Shown piece after piece: positions 20,749 through 57,753 of a stretch of 64,000 nt of DNA. The position numbers and the translations under genes were made by a program. Position 1 is the stretch's first letter. The number at the start of each line of letters is the position of its first letter. This DNA comes from Candidatus Tagabacteria bacterium (lineage in GTDB: Bacteria; Patescibacteriota; Minisyncoccia; GCA-002779875), in NCBI GenBank assembly GCA_963820595.1, contig CAWGAO010000007.1, positions 113,071 to 177,070 of the forward strand, written 5' to 3'. The notes beneath the pieces are model-generated. The model was not told where the DNA came from, did no database searches, and saw only the letters and a program-made list of their open reading frames with translations.

Positions 20749-22062
20749 ATGGAAAAGAAAAAATTCACCGTTGTTCATTATCTGAACCAGTTCTTCGGCG
20801 GAATCGGCGGCGAAGACAAAGCCGATTTTGCTCCTGCTTACGCGGACGGCCCCAAAGGACCGGGAATCGCGCTCCAAAAACTTTTTGCCGAACAGGCGGA
20901 AATTACAGCCACGATTATCTGCGGCGACAATTATTTCGCCGAGCATGCGGAAAAAAGTCTTGAGGAAATTATTTTTCTGACACGGAGCTTTAAACCGGAT
21001 TTGGTTATCGCCGGACCGGCGTTCAATGCGGGACGATACGGCATGGCTTGCGCCGAAGTTTGCAAAGCGGTAGGCGAAAAATTGAAAATACCTGCGATTA
21101 CCGCCCTATCTCCTGAAAATCCGGCAGTGGAAATTTATAAAAAGTCCGTCTTTTTTATCGTTCCGACAAGAAATTCCGTAGTCGGGATGAACGATGCTTT
21201 AAAGGGCATGACTCGTCTTTCACTTAAACTTCTTAATAATGAAACATTGGGTCCTGCCGGGGAAGAAGGCTATATTCCGAAGGGGTTAAGAAAAAATTGT
21301 TTCGTTGAAAAAACCGGCGCCGAAAGAGCGGTTGAAATGCTGATTGAAAAAATCAGCGGCGGCAAAATTAAAACCGAACTTACGTTGCCCGTCTTTGATA
21401 AAGTCAAACCCCTTCCTCCGCTCGAAGATTTGTCGAAAATAAAATTATGCCTGATAACCTCGGGCGGGATAGTGCCCAAAGGCAATCCCGACATGATTTC
21501 TTCTTCGAGCGCTTCCAGGTTTGGAAAATATAGCATTGAAGGATTGGAAACCATTTCCAGTTTGACGCATCAAACATGCCACGGCGGTTATGACCAGACT
21601 TACGCCAACGAAAATCCGAACAGAGTTCTGCCGCTCGATGTGATGCGGGATTTGGAGCGCGAAGGAATAATCGGCAAACTTCATGATTTTTACTACGCCA
21701 CTGTGGGCAATGGCACTTCGGTAGCCAATGCGAGAAAATTTGCCCAGGAAATTGCGGCCGAACTCAAAGAAGCCCAGGTCTCCGCGGTGATTCTCACGTC
21801 CACATGAGGAACATGTACTCGTTGCGGGGCAACGATGGCGAAAGAATTGGAAAAAAATGGAATCGTTACGGTTCATATCTGCACCATTGTTAAAATTTCG
21901 AAAACGGTTGGCGCGCCAAGAATTGTGCCAGCCGTAGCAATTCCCCATCCCCTGGGGAATCCGAAAATTTCCGAAAGCGAGGAAAAAAATCTTCGCCGGA
22001 AAATCGTGGAAAAAGCGCTTCTTGCTCTTGCCACAAAAACAGAAGAACAAACAATATTTTAA
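20749..22062 (+). CDS. grdB: glycine reductase selenoprotein B (component B gamma), with TGA 21805-21807 read as selenocysteine
   Basis: ORFs 20749..21807 and 21835..22062 are in the same frame. The junction reads AVILTST-U-GTCTRCGATMAKE..., the conserved GrdB Sec site. The joined length is 437 aa. Confidence 0.9.
21819..21835 (+). promoter_or_regulatory. Candidate SECIS hairpin of grdB
   Basis: Stem TCGTTGC/GCAACGA with a GGG loop, starting 11 nt after the UGA. Confidence 0.55.
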
Positions 22063-52300: not shown

Positions 52301-52517
52301 TGAATTCCAAAACAAATTCTTTCCCCGCATAATCGTTAATCGGGGAAAATTCCTGAAATAGTTCCTTAAGCCCTTCTTTTAAAAACCAAGAGAAAGAATT
52401 TAATTGGATTTCCACCAAATTCGGCAGAGGTATAAAAGGCTCCTTGTATTTTGAAAAAAATTTCTTTACCAAATTTATATGAGCGTTAGCGAATAATAAA
52501 TTTGCGTACCCCCTCAC
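49305..52517 (-). CDS. rpoB: DNA-directed RNA polymerase subunit beta
   Basis: 1070 aa with canonical RpoB blocks (GTFIVNGVERVVVSQL, SQLSQFMNQKN, GRHGNKGVIS, GEMEVWALEGYGA). The start is uncertain: the track GTG at 52517 lies inside the inverted repeat flanking the GIY-YIG gene, and a downstream TTG is possible. Confidence 0.95.
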   Translation of the reverse strand: MRGYANLLFANAHINLVKKFFSKYKEPFIPLPNLVEIQLNSFSWFLKEGLKELFQEFSPINDYAGKEFVLEFTDYSIDEPKFDEYWAKANNLSYETPLKIKVRLTKKESGESKEQEVFLTDMPLMTSHGTFIVNGVERVVVSQLARSFGVYFTMNVLRGRKLFGAKIIPNRGAWIEVETDADGVIYVRIDRKRKIPATTFLRIFGLKDSKEIEKRFEKTDNSEIAYIKRTLEKDDAATVDEAFVEIYKRIRPGELATVENAKELLEDMFSPSRYDLSSVGRYKFNQRLGLSLENIKKASRILSVGDLISVVSEVINLNNNPEAQPDDIDHLGNRRIRAVGEMLQNQLRIGMARMKRNIQDRMSTLDPDVLTPFNLINSRLFSAVLKKFFTTSQLSQFMNQKNTLDELEHLRRLSALGPGGLTKERAGFEVRDVHISHYGRICPIETPEGPTIGLVVHLASYSRLNEYGILETPYRRVKKGAITPEIVYLDASEESKYNIAHAGIEYDKAGKILDEEVEARVHGQPGIISLDKIDFIDVAPQQAFSIATSLIPFLEHDDANRALMGSNMQRQAVPCLIAEAPRVATGTEERAAHDSGRLIIAEEDGKISYVDASSIAMKNKSGKEKVYKMVNFLRSNDFTTIHQRPIVNVGEEVAKGQVLADTASSDRGQLALGQNVTVAFLSWSGANFEDAIILSRRLVEADKFTSVHVEEFFVDVRDTKLGPEITTYDIPNVGEEKLKDLDEEGIVRVGAEVRAGDILVGKISPKGEAELTPEERLLRSFFGEKARDVKDTSLRLEHGKQGRVVGVKVFSRDRGDKLDVGVIKQVRVEIAQIRKISVGDKLAGRHGNKGVISRILPPEDMPYLEDGTPVDIILNPLGVASRMNIGQILETHLGWAALKLGYQAICPSLNGASDEEIIDEMQKSGLPADGKVTLYDGRTGEPFQQKVTVGNIYMMKLAHMVEDKIHMRSIGPYSLITQQPLGGKAQGGGQRFGEMEVWALEGYGASHTLQEMLTIKSDDMLGRTSAYEAIVRGEKFKNPHLPASFYVLLNELKGLCLDVELDEFNDNLEA

Positions 52518-52800
52518 TCGAAAATTTAATCTTTAAGGCTATTTGTTAATCGACGTTTTAGACTAACAAATGCTTTTGCTCTTCTTTTAATTTGTCTTTC
52601 TCTTTCACGAGCATCCTTTTTGGATTTATAAGATTCGTAATAAATAATCTCAAATGGTCGTCTCTTTTTCGTTGAAATTACTTTTCCACTATTATGTTTT
52701 TTTAATCTTTTCCGTAAGTCATCGCTATATCCGAAATACAAATCTTTATCTCTGCGTGATTTCAAAATATAGAAATAAAACATGAATTTTCGAGTGAGGG
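52511..52800. repeat. Perfect 16-bp inverted repeats enclosing the GIY-YIG gene
   Basis: CCCTCACTCGAAAATT (52511-52526) and AATTTTCGAGTGAGGG (52785-52800). The stop and start codons of the enclosed gene abut the repeats. Confidence 0.75.
52526..52783 (-). CDS. small GIY-YIG (URI-domain) nuclease family protein, 85 aa
   Basis: MFYFYILKSRRDKDLYFGYSDDLRKRLKKHN...IIYYESYKSKKDARERERQIKR. The track ORF (52526..52870) begins further upstream, but the ATG at 52783 gives the family-typical N-terminus. Confidence 0.75.
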   Translation of the reverse strand: MFYFYILKSRRDKDLYFGYSDDLRKRLKKHNSGKVISTKKRRPFEIIYYESYKSKKDARERERQIKRRAKAFVSLKRRLTNSLKD

Positions 52801-53066
52801 AGTTTGTCAAAATATAGTCGTTCGTCTGAAGCAAACTTCTTATTTTGACAAAAAAATACCTAACAAGCAAAAACGCCCTTTCTAAACTTTTTTCCCAAGG
52901 GAATCCAGATAATTTATTTTTATTTACTTAAATATGGTGAAATAAACCACCCAATATTTAATAATAAATCTATTTAATCCGGACGGCAAGCCCCGCCCAC
53001 TACTAAAAATGAAATATAACAAATCTTCTAAAAATTGTCAAATTTTATCGACCTCCTTCCGTCTTC

Positions 53067-53083
53067 CTAAGGTCCGACCTTGG
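53067..53083. repeat. REP palindrome copy 1 (imperfect)
   Basis: CTAAGGTC C GACCTTGG. Confidence 0.7.
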
Positions 53084-53762
53084 TAACCCCATAATCTAAC
53101 CAAATATCAATGAAATCTTGAAAATCTTTTATGTTTTTAAAATATTCCGGAAAGGCTTTTCTATCCAGGAGATTATTGTTTTCTCCTTTAGTATAATTTG
53201 TATAGCTAGACCATTGATAATTATTTAAAAATTTCTTAATACGGGAAATATCTTTAACTCTTTTGTCCTTCCATGTCGGATCTATTAATTTAATTGGATT
53301 CAGATGGATGTAAGCAAAAATATATTTCAAATAATTGTCGTCATCCAATAATTCAGCGCCAAATCTACCTTGGAATAAACTACCGCTTCTATTATTCTTT
53401 TTATTAAAATACATCGCGTAAGCAGTGTTTAATTTTCGCATAAAATTTGTGATTCCGTTTTCGCTCTTTTCTTTAGTCAGCAAATGAAAATGATTCGGCA
53501 TTAAACAATATGCTCCTATATCCACCAATCGCTCTTTTTTATTTTTCTCCAACATTTCCAAGGTCCGACCTTGGAAATGTTGGAAATGGGAACGACCTTG
53601 AAAATATTCTTTAGTAATTACTGCTTTCCTGCCATTGCATAAAGAAAGTAAAAGCAAAAATCTTTGGTAATCATTCACTTCTAAAAAGATTTTTCTTTTT
53701 TCAACGCCGCGATCATAAATATGATAATAATTTCCTGGAGCGAATTTTATCTTGCGGTTCAT
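53067..53762 (-). CDS. IS200/IS605-type Y1 (HUH) transposase, REP-associated (RAYT-like)
   Basis: NYYHIYDRGV, HUH motif CLMPNHFHLL and catalytic Tyr region YIFAYIHLNP. The likely start is the ATG at 53762 (MNRKIKF). The stop codon lies inside the 3' REP copy. Confidence 0.8.
   Translation of the reverse strand: MNRKIKFAPGNYYHIYDRGVEKRKIFLEVNDYQRFLLLLSLCNGRKAVITKEYFQGRSHFQHFQGRTLEMLEKNKKERLVDIGAYCLMPNHFHLLTKEKSENGITNFMRKLNTAYAMYFNKKNNRSGSLFQGRFGAELLDDDNYLKYIFAYIHLNPIKLIDPTWKDKRVKDISRIKKFLNNYQWSSYTNYTKGENNNLLDRKAFPEYFKNIKDFQDFIDIWLDYGVTKVGP
53551..53581. repeat. REP palindrome copy 2 (31-nt perfect palindrome, inside the transposase ORF)
   Basis: AACATTTCCAAGGTC C GACCTTGGAAATGTT, followed by a tandem duplicate TTGGAAATG and a half-site GACCTTG at about 53595. 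Confidence 0.85.
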
Positions 53763-53778
53763 GAAAATAATTATATTC

Positions 53779-53795
53779 CCAAGGTCGGACCTTGG
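53779..53795. repeat. REP palindrome copy 3
   Basis: CCAAGGTC G GACCTTGG, followed by a half-site GACCTTGG at 53799-53806. Confidence 0.8.
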
Positions 53796-53862
53796 CAAGA
53801 CCTTGGATCTTGTCGGCGGTCGGTAAAAGATGTCGGGAAGGTTAAGTTATTAAGAATAAGTA

Positions 53863-55257
53863 TTAAGGGGTGGTTGACGCGGTTTCTGTGGTAGTAGTTG
53901 CCACGGTTTCCGGTGTAGTAGACACCCCGACGTCCGGTGTCGGGGTAACGGGAATGGTGGTTGAAATAGTTTCCGGCGTGGTGATCGGAGTTGATGTTGC
54001 TGTTAAAATACCAGACGCACCGACGTCCGGTGTCGGGGTAACGGAAGTGATGGTTGAAATAGTTTCCGGCGTGGTGGTCGGAGTCCCGACCTCTCCAAGC
54101 GTCGGGATTGATGATGTAGAATTCTCCGGAAATTCCAAGGCGCTGACAGTGCCAGCTAATGAACCAATGCCAGCCAGCGCTTCGGCTCCACACTCGCCCG
54201 GAGTAGATTTCAAAATTCCGGATTCAAGATAAACGCAAGCAGGTTCGCCGGACAATTTGTCAAAAATAGTGATGCCAGTCGGCTTTTCTTTTGAACCCAC
54301 AACCAGCTGTTCTTTAGCCTGCACATAGTCGGCCGTCATCTCGTGAGTAGTAATCGCGTCGGCGATAAATCCTTTCGCCTGAATCACGCCGTCGGCAATA
54401 ATAATGCCGGCGGTTTTAAATTGCTCCAAAATCCAGTTAAACGCTTGGGATATAACGCTGTCGCTAGTAGTAGCGTTTCCAAGGTCCGACCTTGGAAAAG
54501 TGAACGGAGTGCTGGAGGCCATAATATTTTCCAGATTCGCGACTCGCAATTCCAAATCCGCGATTTTTGTTTCGCTGTCTGTTATTCTTTGTTCGTGATT
54601 TTTGATTATGGGTTCGTCTTCCAAGGCAAGCCGGTACTGGCTTAAATTAACAAATACTAAAATCTTTCCGACGGCATTTCTATCGTAAGTTATTGTCCCA
54701 TCAACTGCTACTTGTCCTGAGCCTGTCGAAGGAAAATCTTCCAAGGCAATGCCGACTGTTTGTTGAGAAGACGTCCCCGCTCTCATTCCCACGCCTGAAG
54801 TATTTGAAACAGTAATCCTGTCCCCTATTTTGATTTCTCCTCCGTCAAGATTAACCTTGACCGGAACGCGGCCGGAAAGAGCCACGGGTATAGTGGTGGC
54901 TGTTAATGAACCGTTTCCAAGGTCCGACCTTGGAAAAGAATTTCCCAAAAGAACGCCGGGTTTTTCGGAAACAACGCCGATAATCGAGTCTGTGGAAGAA
55001 CCGGCTTTTTCAATGAAAACTTTGTCGCTTCCAAGGTCCGACCTTGGAAAAGCAACAGGGGCGACTATGTCGCCAGCTTCAAGACTGATGTCATTTGTCG
55101 GATAGTTTTCCGCGACATCGGAAGAAACAGTATTAAAAGATGAAGCGGAAACGCTACCGCCAACGTCAACATTTCCGCTGGCGAAAACGCCGCCGTTGGC
55201 AAAAACATCGCCGTTAACATCTAACTTATAACCCAACGGCGAAGTCGTTGAACCCAT
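53863..55257 (-). CDS. fibre-like surface protein with a coiled-coil and a Thr/Pro-rich C-terminus; carries three in-frame REP insertions
   Basis: 464 aa. The N-terminus ...KLDVNGDVFANGG...SDVAENYP resembles the repeat modules of the upstream fibre genes. It has a coiled-coil (IADLELRVANLENI) and three FPRSDLG motifs. Confidence 0.7.
   Translation of the reverse strand: MGSTTSPLGYKLDVNGDVFANGGVFASGNVDVGGSVSASSFNTVSSDVAENYPTNDISLEAGDIVAPVAFPRSDLGSDKVFIEKAGSSTDSIIGVVSEKPGVLLGNSFPRSDLGNGSLTATTIPVALSGRVPVKVNLDGGEIKIGDRITVSNTSGVGMRAGTSSQQTVGIALEDFPSTGSGQVAVDGTITYDRNAVGKILVFVNLSQYRLALEDEPIIKNHEQRITDSETKIADLELRVANLENIMASSTPFTFPRSDLGNATTSDSVISQAFNWILEQFKTAGIIIADGVIQAKGFIADAITTHEMTADYVQAKEQLVVGSKEKPTGITIFDKLSGEPACVYLESGILKSTPGECGAEALAGIGSLAGTVSALEFPENSTSSIPTLGEVGTPTTTPETISTITSVTPTPDVGASGILTATSTPITTPETISTTIPVTPTPDVGVSTTPETVATTTTETASTTP
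53880..54075. repeat. 93-nt tandem repeat (two full units plus a partial one) in the 3' end of the 464-aa gene
   Basis: The units carry the hairpin palindrome CCCCGACGTCCGGTGTCGGGG (53925-53945; second copy at 54019-54038) and encode a Thr/Pro-rich TTPETIST..VTPTPDVG sequence. Confidence 0.6.
54476..54498. repeat. REP palindrome copy 4 (inside a coding sequence)
   Basis: TTTCCAAGGTC C GACCTTGGAAA, read as FPRSDLG in ORF 53863..55257. Confidence 0.85.
54914..54936. repeat. REP palindrome copy 5 (inside a coding sequence)
   Basis: TTTCCAAGGTC C GACCTTGGAAA, read as FPRSDLG. Confidence 0.85.
55029..55049. repeat. REP palindrome copy 6 (inside a coding sequence)
   Basis: TTCCAAGGTC C GACCTTGGAA, read as FPRSDLG. 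Confidence 0.85.
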
Positions 55258-55299: not shown

Positions 55300-56925
55300 T
55301 CAATATTCATAAACGGCGTTGATTGTGCCGAAAGCGGAATCAATGCCAATGCCGTAATAAAGCGGTGAAATCTGCTGCTGCTGTTCCTGTATCCCTGCGG
55401 TCAGAATCGCCTCAAAGCCCGAAGGATTATACATATAGTATCCGTTGGCCGCCAGAGTAATGAATTCTGGCACCACTTTCATCATCTCTTGGGCAATAAA
55501 GCCATACATAACTGTATCAGTAGAAGTGCCGTATAATTGCTGATGCAAAGCGTTCCACTCATATTTAATGGGGTGCATTTGGGAAATCTTATCCAGAGCC
55601 GTTCCCTTGAGCTCGCCCAAAATATTCTTTAACCTGGCATCGGACTGATTTTCCCAAGCAGTGCCGCCCACGGTCTTACCTGCATCGCCCACAACCTCCA
55701 ATTTGTAGGTTGCGGGGTTAATTTGCCCGATGCCGACGTTGCCGCCAGCTGGATTAAGGGATATTGGTTCTGCGGCGCTTGAATACGATCTTGCCTGTAT
55801 GTAGTATCCCCAACCTGCTCCAGCATCCCAACTCATCACCATCTCGGCATTTCCACCAGGAACATCCAATCCAAATGCTGCGGGTGAATGATAAGTCAAG
55901 CTCGGAGTCGCATAACTGTAACCGGACTGATGAATGGCATAGCTCGGATTCGTCGTCCCGATGCCGACGTTGCCACCTGTTTGGAATGTTACTCTAGTAG
56001 TACCAGCATTCAAAGGATCACCATTTTGAGCATTAGACTCTCGCAGTTCAAGGGTATTATCAGCAGACCAAGGAGACACCAATGCCCAATTATGACTATT
56101 GCTGGAGGGGAAAGTAGAATACCATTGGTAATTAGGATAGTACCCTTCACTACGAATTCCGTCACCAGCCGCATATGTTACTCCATGATATTCGTGAAGC
56201 TTCGCCCCCGGCGTCGTCGTCCCGATGCCGACGCTGCCGCTCTTATCAATTCTCATTCGTTCTCCTGAAGAGATACCACTGTCATGAGTGTGAAACGCAA
56301 GGTATCCCTCGCCTGTTCCGGCCGGCGGACCAAACTCTATACCAGAAAATCCGGAGTTGGCTCCAAATGAAGCACCAGTAGCTGTCCCGATATACTTTGA
56401 AGCTGTTGCTGTTTCTTTTCCTATCTGAATCCAATCGTTATTACCATCTCCTGAGTTTATAGACAATATTCCTTCCGGACTCGCCGTCCCGATGCCGACG
56501 TTGCCAGTGCTTCCCTTTATTCTCATATACTCTGTCAACGTTCCCGCACCATTCATAACCCAAAAAGCCAAATCGGCATCATTACCCAAAGAGGGATTAT
56601 AATTTCTAATTTCTGATCCAGCCCCCGCATTTGTTGAACTGTGCTGAAAACCGATAGCCGCATAATCTCCAGATGAAACAGAATTTTGATAGACAGACAA
56701 AACTCGGGTATTTACTACGCCATTAACTCCCAGCTTATGAGCTGGCGCCGTCGTCCCGATGCCGACGTTGCCGTTATACGTCCCACCTAAACCGATATAC
56801 ATAGTAGTTGCGCCACCGGCATAAGTCTGAAAATAATAGCCGTTTGTGGTACCACTTGAAACAATCGCCCGATAGGCGCCGTTAATTGCATCCTGACAAT
56901 ATCCGGCGGAGCAGCCAGTACACAA
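55300..56925 (-). CDS. fibre protein C-terminal portion with a peptidase-S74 intramolecular chaperone domain
   Basis: Six GNVGIG/GSVGIG modules, then ...WENQSDARLKNILGEL...HPIKYEWN...YGFIAQEMMKVVPEF, the endosialidase/tail-fibre chaperone signature with the SDxRxK autocleavage site. It joins 56787..57260 across a G-run frame break near 56935-56945. Confidence 0.8.
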   Translation of the reverse strand: MCTGCSAGYCQDAINGAYRAIVSSGTTNGYYFQTYAGGATTMYIGLGGTYNGNVGIGTTAPAHKLGVNGVVNTRVLSVYQNSVSSGDYAAIGFQHSSTNAGAGSEIRNYNPSLGNDADLAFWVMNGAGTLTEYMRIKGSTGNVGIGTASPEGILSINSGDGNNDWIQIGKETATASKYIGTATGASFGANSGFSGIEFGPPAGTGEGYLAFHTHDSGISSGERMRIDKSGSVGIGTTTPGAKLHEYHGVTYAAGDGIRSEGYYPNYQWYSTFPSSNSHNWALVSPWSADNTLELRESNAQNGDPLNAGTTRVTFQTGGNVGIGTTNPSYAIHQSGYSYATPSLTYHSPAAFGLDVPGGNAEMVMSWDAGAGWGYYIQARSYSSAAEPISLNPAGGNVGIGQINPATYKLEVVGDAGKTVGGTAWENQSDARLKNILGELKGTALDKISQMHPIKYEWNALHQQLYGTSTDTVMYGFIAQEMMKVVPEFITLAANGYYMYNPSGFEAILTAGIQEQQQQISPLYYGIGIDSAFGTINAVYEY

Positions 56926-57753
56926 TACCGCAGAGGCCCCGGCGTGAACGTGCCGGTTGTCGCTATAATATTTCCGGCTGTCGATGTAATATTTCCAGAA
57001 CCGGAATAAGTGGTCCCGCCGCTGATGGCTCCGGAAAGAGTCAAGCTGGTAACCGCCGCCAATGCGCCTGCATTTTCAGTTACTGTCCCCCAGGCGCCAG
57101 TGCCTGCTGTTCCGCTGTTCTTTAAGATTTGGTTGGATGCACCGCCTGCCGGAAGATGGATATTCCCGGCTGTCGTGAGCGTGGGCAATAGTGATAGCGG
57201 TTCCAGCCGTGGCGTGCAGCATATATGCATCTGCGGTGATTGATAAGGCGCCGGAGACACCTAAAGCAGCGCTGATATGCTTATCATCAACTCGGTCTAC
57301 GTTTAAGTTTGATACTTTTGTCGTGGAAGTTATTACAAATGGAGCTGTCCCGTCAGCTTTGGTATTAGTAAGCTGGTCGTTCATGGACAAGGTGGTAACC
57401 GCCGCTAAAGCACCGGCATTTTCAGTTACTGTCCCCCAGGCGCCAGTACCTGCTGTTCCGCTGTTCTTTAAGATTTGGTTGGATGCACCAGCTGCCGGAA
57501 GATGGATATTCCCTGCTGTCGTGAGGTGGGCAATAGTGATAGCGGTTCCAGCCGTGGCGTGCAGCATATATGCATCTGCGGTGATTGATAAGGCGCCGGA
57601 GACACCTACAGCAGCGCTGATATGCTTATCATCAACTCGGTCTACGTTTAAGTTTGATACTTTTGTCGTGGAAGTTATTACAAATGGAGCTGTCCCGTCA
57701 GCTTTGGTATTAGTAAGCTGGTCGTTCATGGACAAGGTGGTGATACCACCCAA
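56787..57753 (-). CDS. fibre protein fragments carrying 351-nt tandem repeats
   Basis: ORFs 57076..57753 and 56787..57260 repeat the unit ...TTLSMNDQLTNTKADGTAPFVITSTTKVSNLNVDRVDDKHIS...TAGNIHLPAAGASNQILKNSGTAGTGAWGTVTENAGALAAV. The frames are linked by a 1-nt insertion relative to the upstream repeat copy. Confidence 0.5.

Follow-up and report, generated by a model that had tools for sequence, protein, structure and literature searches.

Why does one short palindrome occur six times within 2 kb, around and inside a transposase gene and again inside the gene next to it? The question arises from a 64,000-nt stretch of a Candidatus Tagabacteria genome (assembly GCA_963820595.1, contig CAWGAO010000007.1, positions 113,071 to 177,070), here called the window, whose own numbering is used throughout. 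We consider it probable that the locus is a REPtron-like unit, one of a family of Y1 (HUH) tyrosine transposases that extends across the Patescibacteria and whose palindrome spreads as short solo copies. It is a new lineage-wide variation on the known system of repetitive extragenic palindromes (REPs) and REP-associated tyrosine transposases (RAYTs), and not a new kind of element. The original prediction, made from the window sequence, had described a RAYT-like transposase with a private REP element that also sits in frame inside coding sequence, and had taken the latter as the unusual part.

The palindrome and its transposase gene

The copies of the palindrome and the two genes that they flank or enter are:

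53067-53762, minus strand: transposase gene, predicted Y1/HUH tyrosine transposase of 231 aa (ATG at 53762, TAG stop at 53067-53069)
53067-53083: copy 1, downstream of the transposase gene, with one mismatch (CTAAGG), overlapping the last codons
53558-53574: core of copy 2, internal to the transposase gene, read FQGRTLE (residues 63-69)
53589-53603: degenerate internal copy, TTTCAAGGTCGTTCC on the minus strand, read FQGRS, 27 nt 5' of copy 2 in the gene
53779-53795: copy 3, upstream of the transposase gene, centre base G on the plus strand, centred 24 nt before the ATG
53799-53806: extra half-site GACCTTGG, adjoining copy 3
53863-55257, minus strand: gene of a surface/fibre-like protein of 464 aa without Pfam domain, host of copies 4 to 6
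54479-54495: core of copy 4 (27-nt unit 54474-54500, CTTTTCCAAGGTCGGACCTTGGAAACG on the minus strand), read (T)FPRSDLGN(A)
54917-54933: core of copy 5 (unit 54912-54938, the same 27 nt as in copy 4), read (S)FPRSDLGN(G)
55031-55047: core of copy 6 (27-nt unit 55026-55052, with one difference, GGAAGCG), read (A)FPRSDLGS(D)

The palindrome, CCAAGGTC-S-GACCTTGG, has six copies within 53067-55049, where none is expected, and none elsewhere in the window; 100 shuffles of the sequence gave no match at all. A scan with CCAAGGTCSGACCTTGG, allowing up to two mismatches, placed their starts at 53067, 53558, 53779, 54479, 54917 and 55031. The 8-mer half-site CCAAGGTC is found 14 times in the window against 1.24 expected; 12 of these sites lie within 53076-55047, the remaining two (28486 and 39231) being at chance level. 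The TAG stop of the transposase gene lies inside copy 1 and is made by the single mismatch of this copy. Copy 2 extends to a palindrome of 37-41 nt at 53546-53586 (41 nt with 20-nt arms and one mismatch), and TTGGAAATG forms a tandem duplicate at 53571-53588. All six positions had been given correctly by the original prediction, as had the absence of further copies, the extension of copy 2, the duplicate, the stop codon supplied by copy 1 and the reading FQGRTLE.

Folded as single-stranded DNA (ssDNA), copies 2, 4, 5 and 6 reach -9 to -18.6 kcal/mol, with z-scores of -3.5 to -9.5 against shuffles, the hairpin of copy 2 being the most stable (-18.6 kcal/mol, z -9.5). An Rfam search returned no family matching the palindrome region. 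The half-site next to copy 3 is possibly the remnant of a doublet.

The gene between copies 1 and 3 is, by sequence and structure prediction, an intact Y1/HUH transposase gene. An identical database protein likewise has 231 aa, and the alternative longer start at a TTG merely reads through copy 3. The protein scores 45.1 bits with Pfam Y1_Tnp (PF01797; cut-off 23, E 1.3e-11) and carries the HUH motif NHFHLL at residue 90, an FQ motif (LFQGRF) at 129, the Tyr motif YIHLNP at 151 and WSSY at 184; H91, H93 and Y151 are invariant across 120 sequences. An AlphaFold2 model based on 120 homologues has a predicted local distance difference test (pLDDT) score of 87.8, with a low-confidence loop at about residues 50-70, upstream of the HUH strand, into which the residues of copy 2 fall. 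The best Foldseek match of the model is 4er8_A (E 2e-6), the E. coli RAYT bound to a REP hairpin, followed by the ISDra2 and IS608 transposases (2xm3, 2a6m), each with a probability of 1.0 as for 4er8_A. The earlier identification as a Y1 transposase is thus borne out by profile, motifs and fold. Compared with its homologues, the protein has 8 additional residues where copy 2 and the degenerate copy lie. Judged by its sequence, the degenerate copy is an older, decayed internal copy at about the usual internal site of the family (see below), and a fresh perfect copy beside a decayed one is what is peculiar to the window.

In the 464-aa protein, FPRSDLG is read from all three copies, at residues 70-76, 108-114 and 254-260, and the antisense open reading frame (ORF) 54830-55105 encodes the same peptide, as had been stated. 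FPRSDLG occurs at none of the three sites in 13 homologues (31-56% identity). Because it is absent there and the three copies have a 27-nt unit in common, the segments are in-frame insertions rather than a conserved peptide, as first supposed. The sites are variable loops beside conserved blocks such as GVVSxxPG and PVALSGRVPVKV; copy 5 sits in the loop preceding the latter. The 27 nt (9 codons) common to copies 4-6, CTTTTCCAAGGTCGGACCTTGGAA[A/G]CG, exceed the 23-mer conserved across genomes by 4 bases. The degenerate copy in the transposase gene lies exactly the same distance, 27 nt, from copy 2, and it is likely from these local copies that 27 nt is the local mobile unit. In all six frames, both the palindrome and the 27-nt unit are free of stop codons. 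We also considered the common frame of the three copies as a frame rule and rejected it: it has a chance of 1 in 9, and other genes use all three frames.

The repeat in related loci and genomes

Is this arrangement an accident of one gene? A family scan combined 80 metagenome loci, with homologues 43-64% identical to the window protein, with the window and three Saccharibacteria loci, giving 83 non-redundant loci. Palindromes were found at three places:

Upstream of the gene: AAGG...CCTT-type palindrome in 73 of 81 testable loci, centre most often at -40 nt relative to the ATG
Over the stop codon or immediately following it: palindrome in 66 of 78 testable loci, 20 of them with the centre at -8 or -2 nt
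Inside the gene: palindrome in 34 loci, centre at +164 to +202 nt

The internal palindrome lies in the same loop upstream of the HUH motif (residues 54-70; HUH at 90), and the codon phase of its centre is shared by 32 of the 34 loci. All three copies are present in 32 loci, 25 of which have the same inner arm throughout (at most one mismatch). The palindromes themselves are locus-specific, with more than 20 arm types (e.g. CAAGGTTCAACCTTG, AAAGGTTTAACCTTT, CAAGGACGGTCCTTG, CAAGGGTTACCCTTG and CATAGGCGAGGCCTATG), and the peptide at the internal site tracks the DNA palindrome: it reads QGRTL, QGSTL, EGLTF, QGRSL, QGLPL, IGEAY and others, glycine alone being constant. The internal copy follows the flanking repeat while the peptide drifts, so that a constraint at the DNA level is directly visible inside coding sequence. 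What had looked like a one-off colonisation by the element of its own transposase gene is therefore a family trait, in which the internal copy matches the flanking palindrome of its own locus.

Doublets resembling REPINs were seen in, e.g., loci L040, L078, L090, L102 and L103, and ORFs in the neighbourhood can harbour solo copies of other palindrome types too, such as a 706-aa ORF of L106. Locus L034, from another sample, repeats both the palindrome and the architecture, its homologue being 64% identical. A rule for the orientation of the centre base at the upstream, internal and downstream sites was sought by eye and rejected, the patterns being mixed (e.g. upstream differs while internal and downstream agree, or all are the same). 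The family comprises 335 clusters (50% identity) at E <= 1e-30 and 21,225 at E <= 1e-3; its named members are nearly all Patescibacteria.

The palindrome of the window is not private, as had been proposed. Among contigs representing one genome per species, the 21-mer TTCCAAGGTCNGACCTTGGAA is present at 33 loci in other genomes, with about 2 estimated by chance; a scan of viral contigs gave no match. Nearly all 33 belong to the Candidate Phyla Radiation (CPR), namely Saccharibacteria, Kaiserbacteria, Paceibacterota and 'Patescibacteria group'. The sole named match outside the CPR, right at the 5' end of an ORF of 769 aa in a metagenome-assembled genome of Kyrpidia sp. (L016), fits the estimate of about 2 chance matches. 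In three Saccharibacteria loci (L029-L031) the identical palindrome flanks Y1 genes 33-44% identical to that of the window. On the 698-kb Saccharibacteria contig CAYPDT010000001 the copies are dispersed and number at least 17; of 15 loci of 8 kb sampled there, only one yielded a transposase.

Nine copies of the 21-mer lie well inside Pfam-verified genes, with all three frames in use. The in-frame hosts are leucyl-tRNA synthetase (LeuRS; two genomes), TsaD, UvrC, a PIF1 helicase, an M20 peptidase, GrpE, RNase HII and a NUDIX protein. The two palindrome-bearing LeuRS proteins are 43% identical and carry the copy in the same loop of the editing domain. Among 95 LeuRS relatives from Paceibacteria, 60 have a 30-residue baseline loop and 8 have QGRTLE; others show different palindrome-like peptides at the same loop (QGLTL, or EVRTSDV-like, single or repeated), which suggests, at the level of sequence, that several palindromic repeat families have used it. 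Orthologous copies in LeuRS are partly decayed in two relatives. This loop, WIGKSEGA...TTRPDT (L009, L033, L114, L115 and relatives), is a hot spot of short insertions in Paceibacteria-type genomes, and the LeuRS proteins with the hot-spot loop also carry an inserted NUDIX domain.

Mechanism, alternatives and genomic setting

How might such a unit work? We propose that the cognate palindrome is kept in the promoter, in a coding segment for a surface loop upstream of the HUH motif, and over the stop codon. By analogy to IS608 TnpA and E. coli TnpA-REP, the enzyme would recognise it as an ssDNA hairpin, cut and rejoin it, and in this way mobilise it as short solo copies. Selection would then keep those copies that lie in intergenic DNA or in permissive protein loops. 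Since the 27-nt unit is stop-free in all frames, copies in such loops would survive as insertions of 7-9 residues, as is observed for the three copies in the 464-aa gene. Binding of the protein at copy 3 could repress the transposase gene. The internal copy could be a cis-acting or autoregulatory site; or the internal site could be repeatedly overwritten, new copies landing beside old ones, as the pair in the window suggests.

Several observations weigh against this proposal. No GTAG or GTGG was found among 88 palindrome flanks, which means that the GT[AG]G tag at the hairpin foot of canonical REPs is missing; the flank profile contains solely (G)TTT before CCAAGG. The palindromes are perfect and thus have no strand asymmetry, unlike the ends of IS608. 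The six copies all lie within 2 kb of the 64-kb window. With NCBIfam NF047646 (REP_Tyr_transpos equivalog) the protein reaches 52 bits, under the cut-off of 80, and a sequence search of the PDB with a profile of 18 homologues gave no chain at E <= 0.01. The copy-bearing loops are not clean insertions of +7 or +9 residues either: those of the 464-aa protein are variable, and in LeuRS the loop length changes by +5 aa or 0. For the same reason, the LeuRS relatives were rejected as a source of the exact insertion length, the loop having been remodelled. The description as RAYT-like can thus be kept in part: the cognate palindromes flank the gene in a REPtron-like layout, whereas the NCBIfam cut-off is missed and the tag is lacking.

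A bolder version of the proposal, possible in our view but doubtful, would have a CPR-wide system in which the gene retains, at one fixed codon position, a functional copy of the target hairpin that co-evolves with the flanks and acts in cis or in autoregulation. The system would also write stop-free 27-nt cassettes into surface loops of essential proteins (such as the hot-spot loop of the LeuRS editing domain) and donate -35 boxes. It would amount to domesticated ssDNA editing and not to a mere parasite.

The features around the transposase gene that matter for the alternatives and the setting are:

52526-52870, minus strand: GIY-YIG nuclease gene (114 aa), second selfish-type gene of a low-GC island
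53770-53798, minus strand: promoter-like site TTGCCA-17-TATAAT, with 11 of 12 consensus positions matched
55300-56925, minus strand: ORF of 541 aa with a C-terminal Peptidase_S74 chaperone domain, 42 nt upstream of the 464-aa ORF and co-oriented with it

The strongest of the competing explanations, which we nevertheless judge unlikely, is an autonomous insertion sequence of the IS200 type: the flanking palindromes would be its left and right ends, the whole unit of about 750 bp would transpose, and the solo copies would be relics or miniature derivatives. The palindromes do bracket the gene tightly in most loci, and its neighbours vary between loci. The transposase lies in a low-GC island (52450-53800, about 0.30, with flanks of 0.47-0.52) between rpoB and the fibre-like gene, and in each of the 55 loci compared the homologue has a GC content below that of its surroundings. 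Such a deficit fits a gene that was mobile or came from elsewhere, and it counts for the REPtron-like reading as well. However, the window has a single copy of the gene, where an insertion sequence of this type would have several near-identical full copies per genome, and on the Saccharibacteria contig with its 17 or more palindromes one of the 15 sampled loci has a transposase. Moreover, both ends consist of the same perfect palindrome instead of distinct imperfect left-end and right-end hairpins, and the Tyr motif is of class 2 (Y---NP), not of the IS200 type Y---Q (PMC6006769).

Less probable still is that the palindrome is mainly a regulatory site of the host or of the gene itself, either an operator or a -35 element working in both directions, to which a dimeric protein binds (possibly the Y1 protein, domesticated). 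In its favour, copy 3 occupies the -35 hexamer and spacer of the promoter-like site. This site may act as a promoter, going by its consensus match; its TATAAT ends 7 nt before the ATG, which suggests that the transposase mRNA would be leaderless. Across the family, an arm with TTGNNN stands 16-18 nt from TANNNT in 18 of 53 loci, compared with 5-13 in shifted controls (the TANNNT hexamers counted end 4-12 nt, mostly 6-8 nt, before the ATG). This is an enrichment of only about 2-fold, and we rejected the palindrome arm as a general -35 box of the transposase promoter, keeping it as a lead. Operators would also fail to explain identical 27-nt cassettes in coding loops of unrelated genes, and the REPIN-like doublets would be left unexplained. 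A regulatory role of the upstream and internal copies is, on the other hand, a possible component of the REPtron-like unit that we prefer.

Additionally, in twelve Saccharibacteria loci (L001, L003, L005-L008, L011, L018, L020, L021, L024 and L030) the intergenic solo copies have a one-sided conserved flank, AAATGTGGTGTnnTAT, which puts a -10-like hexamer 17 nt after the TTGGAA of the arm. This would also fit a regulatory site; the palindrome may be a portable -35 element there, or the repeat unit may be longer in those genomes.

Very improbable is the view that the palindromy is incidental and that FPRSDLG and FQGRTLE represent motifs conserved at the peptide level, or repeats within the proteins. 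It could draw on a weakly conserved Q-G-R-x-L at the internal loop of transposase homologues, but FPRSDLG is absent from all 13 homologues of the 464-aa protein, the peptides at the internal site vary with the DNA palindrome of each locus, and different genes use all three frames of the same DNA. Artefacts of assembly, linkers or chimeras can practically be dismissed, the same 21-mer being present in independent assemblies from many studies, the architecture recurring around the homologue of L034, and the reading frames being intact.

As for the setting, the GIY-YIG gene has a strong promoter-like site of its own (TTGACA-17-TATATT, 53041-53013). We considered it as a partner of the transposase and rejected it; it adjoins the transposase at none of the other loci. 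On the other side, some homologues of the 464-aa protein carry long N-terminal GxGTTxP-repeat regions resembling the 541-aa ORF, and the 541-aa and 464-aa ORFs may be a split gene or a single functional unit. A 345-bp unit occurs twice, with 96% identity, at 57042-57741 inside the upstream fibre-like ORFs, and shorter tandem repeats at 53873-53921 fall within the Thr/Pro-rich C-terminus of the 464-aa protein. At one further transposase locus (L068:1721-2740, palindrome TCCAAGGACAGTCCTTGGA) a homologue of the fibre-like protein (31% identity) is located directly upstream of the transposase.

Far from this locus, at 20749-21807 on the plus strand, the window contains an ORF for selenoprotein B of glycine/sarcosine/betaine reductase (Pfam GRDB, E 1.5e-152). 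It ends with TGA at 21805-21807, directly followed by an Rfam SECIS_4 match at 21808-21845 (53.8 bits; gathering score 38), and a further ORF at 21835-22062 is in frame with it. Thus 20749-22062 is probably a selenocysteine read-through gene, unexpected if the organism is a Patescibacterium.

Comparison with known systems

REPtrons (RAYT/TnpA-REP; Nunvar 2010, Bertels and Rainey 2011, Ton-Hoang 2012, structure 4er8) are among the closest known systems. They likewise have a Y1 HUH enzyme with the class-2 motif Y---NP, a cognate palindrome flanking the gene, solo copies and doublets elsewhere and locus-specific repeats, and they provide the best structural match. Here, in contrast, the GT[AG]G tag is absent, the palindromes are short (17-27 nt) and perfect where theirs are imperfect, the protein falls short of the NCBIfam RAYT cut-off and the hosts are Patescibacteria. 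A further difference is that an identical repeat is common to distant genomes whose transposases are only 33-64% identical.

In its motifs the protein corresponds to TnpAY1 subclass 2.1/TIRYT, having the same set NH[YF]H, FQ instead of WQ, Y[IV]HLNP and an 'SS' tail, and 231 aa compared with about 238; this match is a by-eye comparison with Table 1 of PMC6006769 and not a phylogeny. Subclass 2.1 has been reported without REPs, or with long terminal inverted repeats GGGGWSAS (PMC6006769, PMC3733652). The genes studied here are instead flanked by short perfect palindromes, and for a C-terminal domain of the helix-turn-helix-like type there was no Pfam hit at E <= 0.01.

In subclass 2.4, REPs are inserted in frame inside the tnpA-REP gene itself (Quentin 2018, PMC6006769). 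The likeness is considerable: a cognate repeat inside its own gene, with the frame kept, in a peripheral loop. However, those insertions are found between the HuH and Tyr motifs, with variable length and sequence, whereas here the site is fixed, upstream of HUH and in the same phase in nearly all loci that have it; moreover, the subclass 2.4 motifs WQ and YIxNNP are unlike those of the window protein. In the rolling-circle HUH initiators phiX174 gene A and pT181 repC, the origin also lies inside the gene. There, too, the cognate hairpin or nick site of an HUH enzyme is part of its own coding sequence; this is an analogy only, with no evidence of a replicon here.

Rickettsia palindromic elements of the RPE-1 type measure about 100-150 bp and are not known to have a linked transposase, whereas the present unit comprises about 27 nt, next to a Y1 gene. 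They and intragenic REPs otherwise resemble it in their in-frame insertion into tolerant loops of unrelated genes, some of which have housekeeping or repair functions (Ogata 2000; Di Nocera 2013). That REPs lie in frame in host genes, repair genes among them, and are akin to the Rickettsia elements has been described before (Di Nocera 2013, PMC3733652). Because this work and Quentin 2018 cover both in-frame cases, in host genes and inside RAYT genes of subclass 2.4 (PMC6006769), the layout that the original prediction had singled out as unusual has precedents.

Work on REP/RAYT systems has concentrated on Proteobacteria, Cyanobacteria and Bacteroidetes; for Patescibacteria we found no description in the literature searched, the coverage of which was incomplete, so that this is absence of evidence only. 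What differs here is the subclass-2.1-like motif set of the protein, the perfect palindromes lacking GTAG, the fixed internal site upstream of HUH, the identical repeat in distant CPR genomes and the host phylum. A protein with the motifs of a group reported without REPs yet keeps a cognate palindrome in three fixed places across a large family, and the same 21-mer stands in frame in essential genes of ultra-small genomes. Together with the DNA-level constraint at the internal site, this makes the family a tractable system for two questions, namely how an HUH enzyme chooses its hairpin and how proteins are remodelled by short mobile cassettes.

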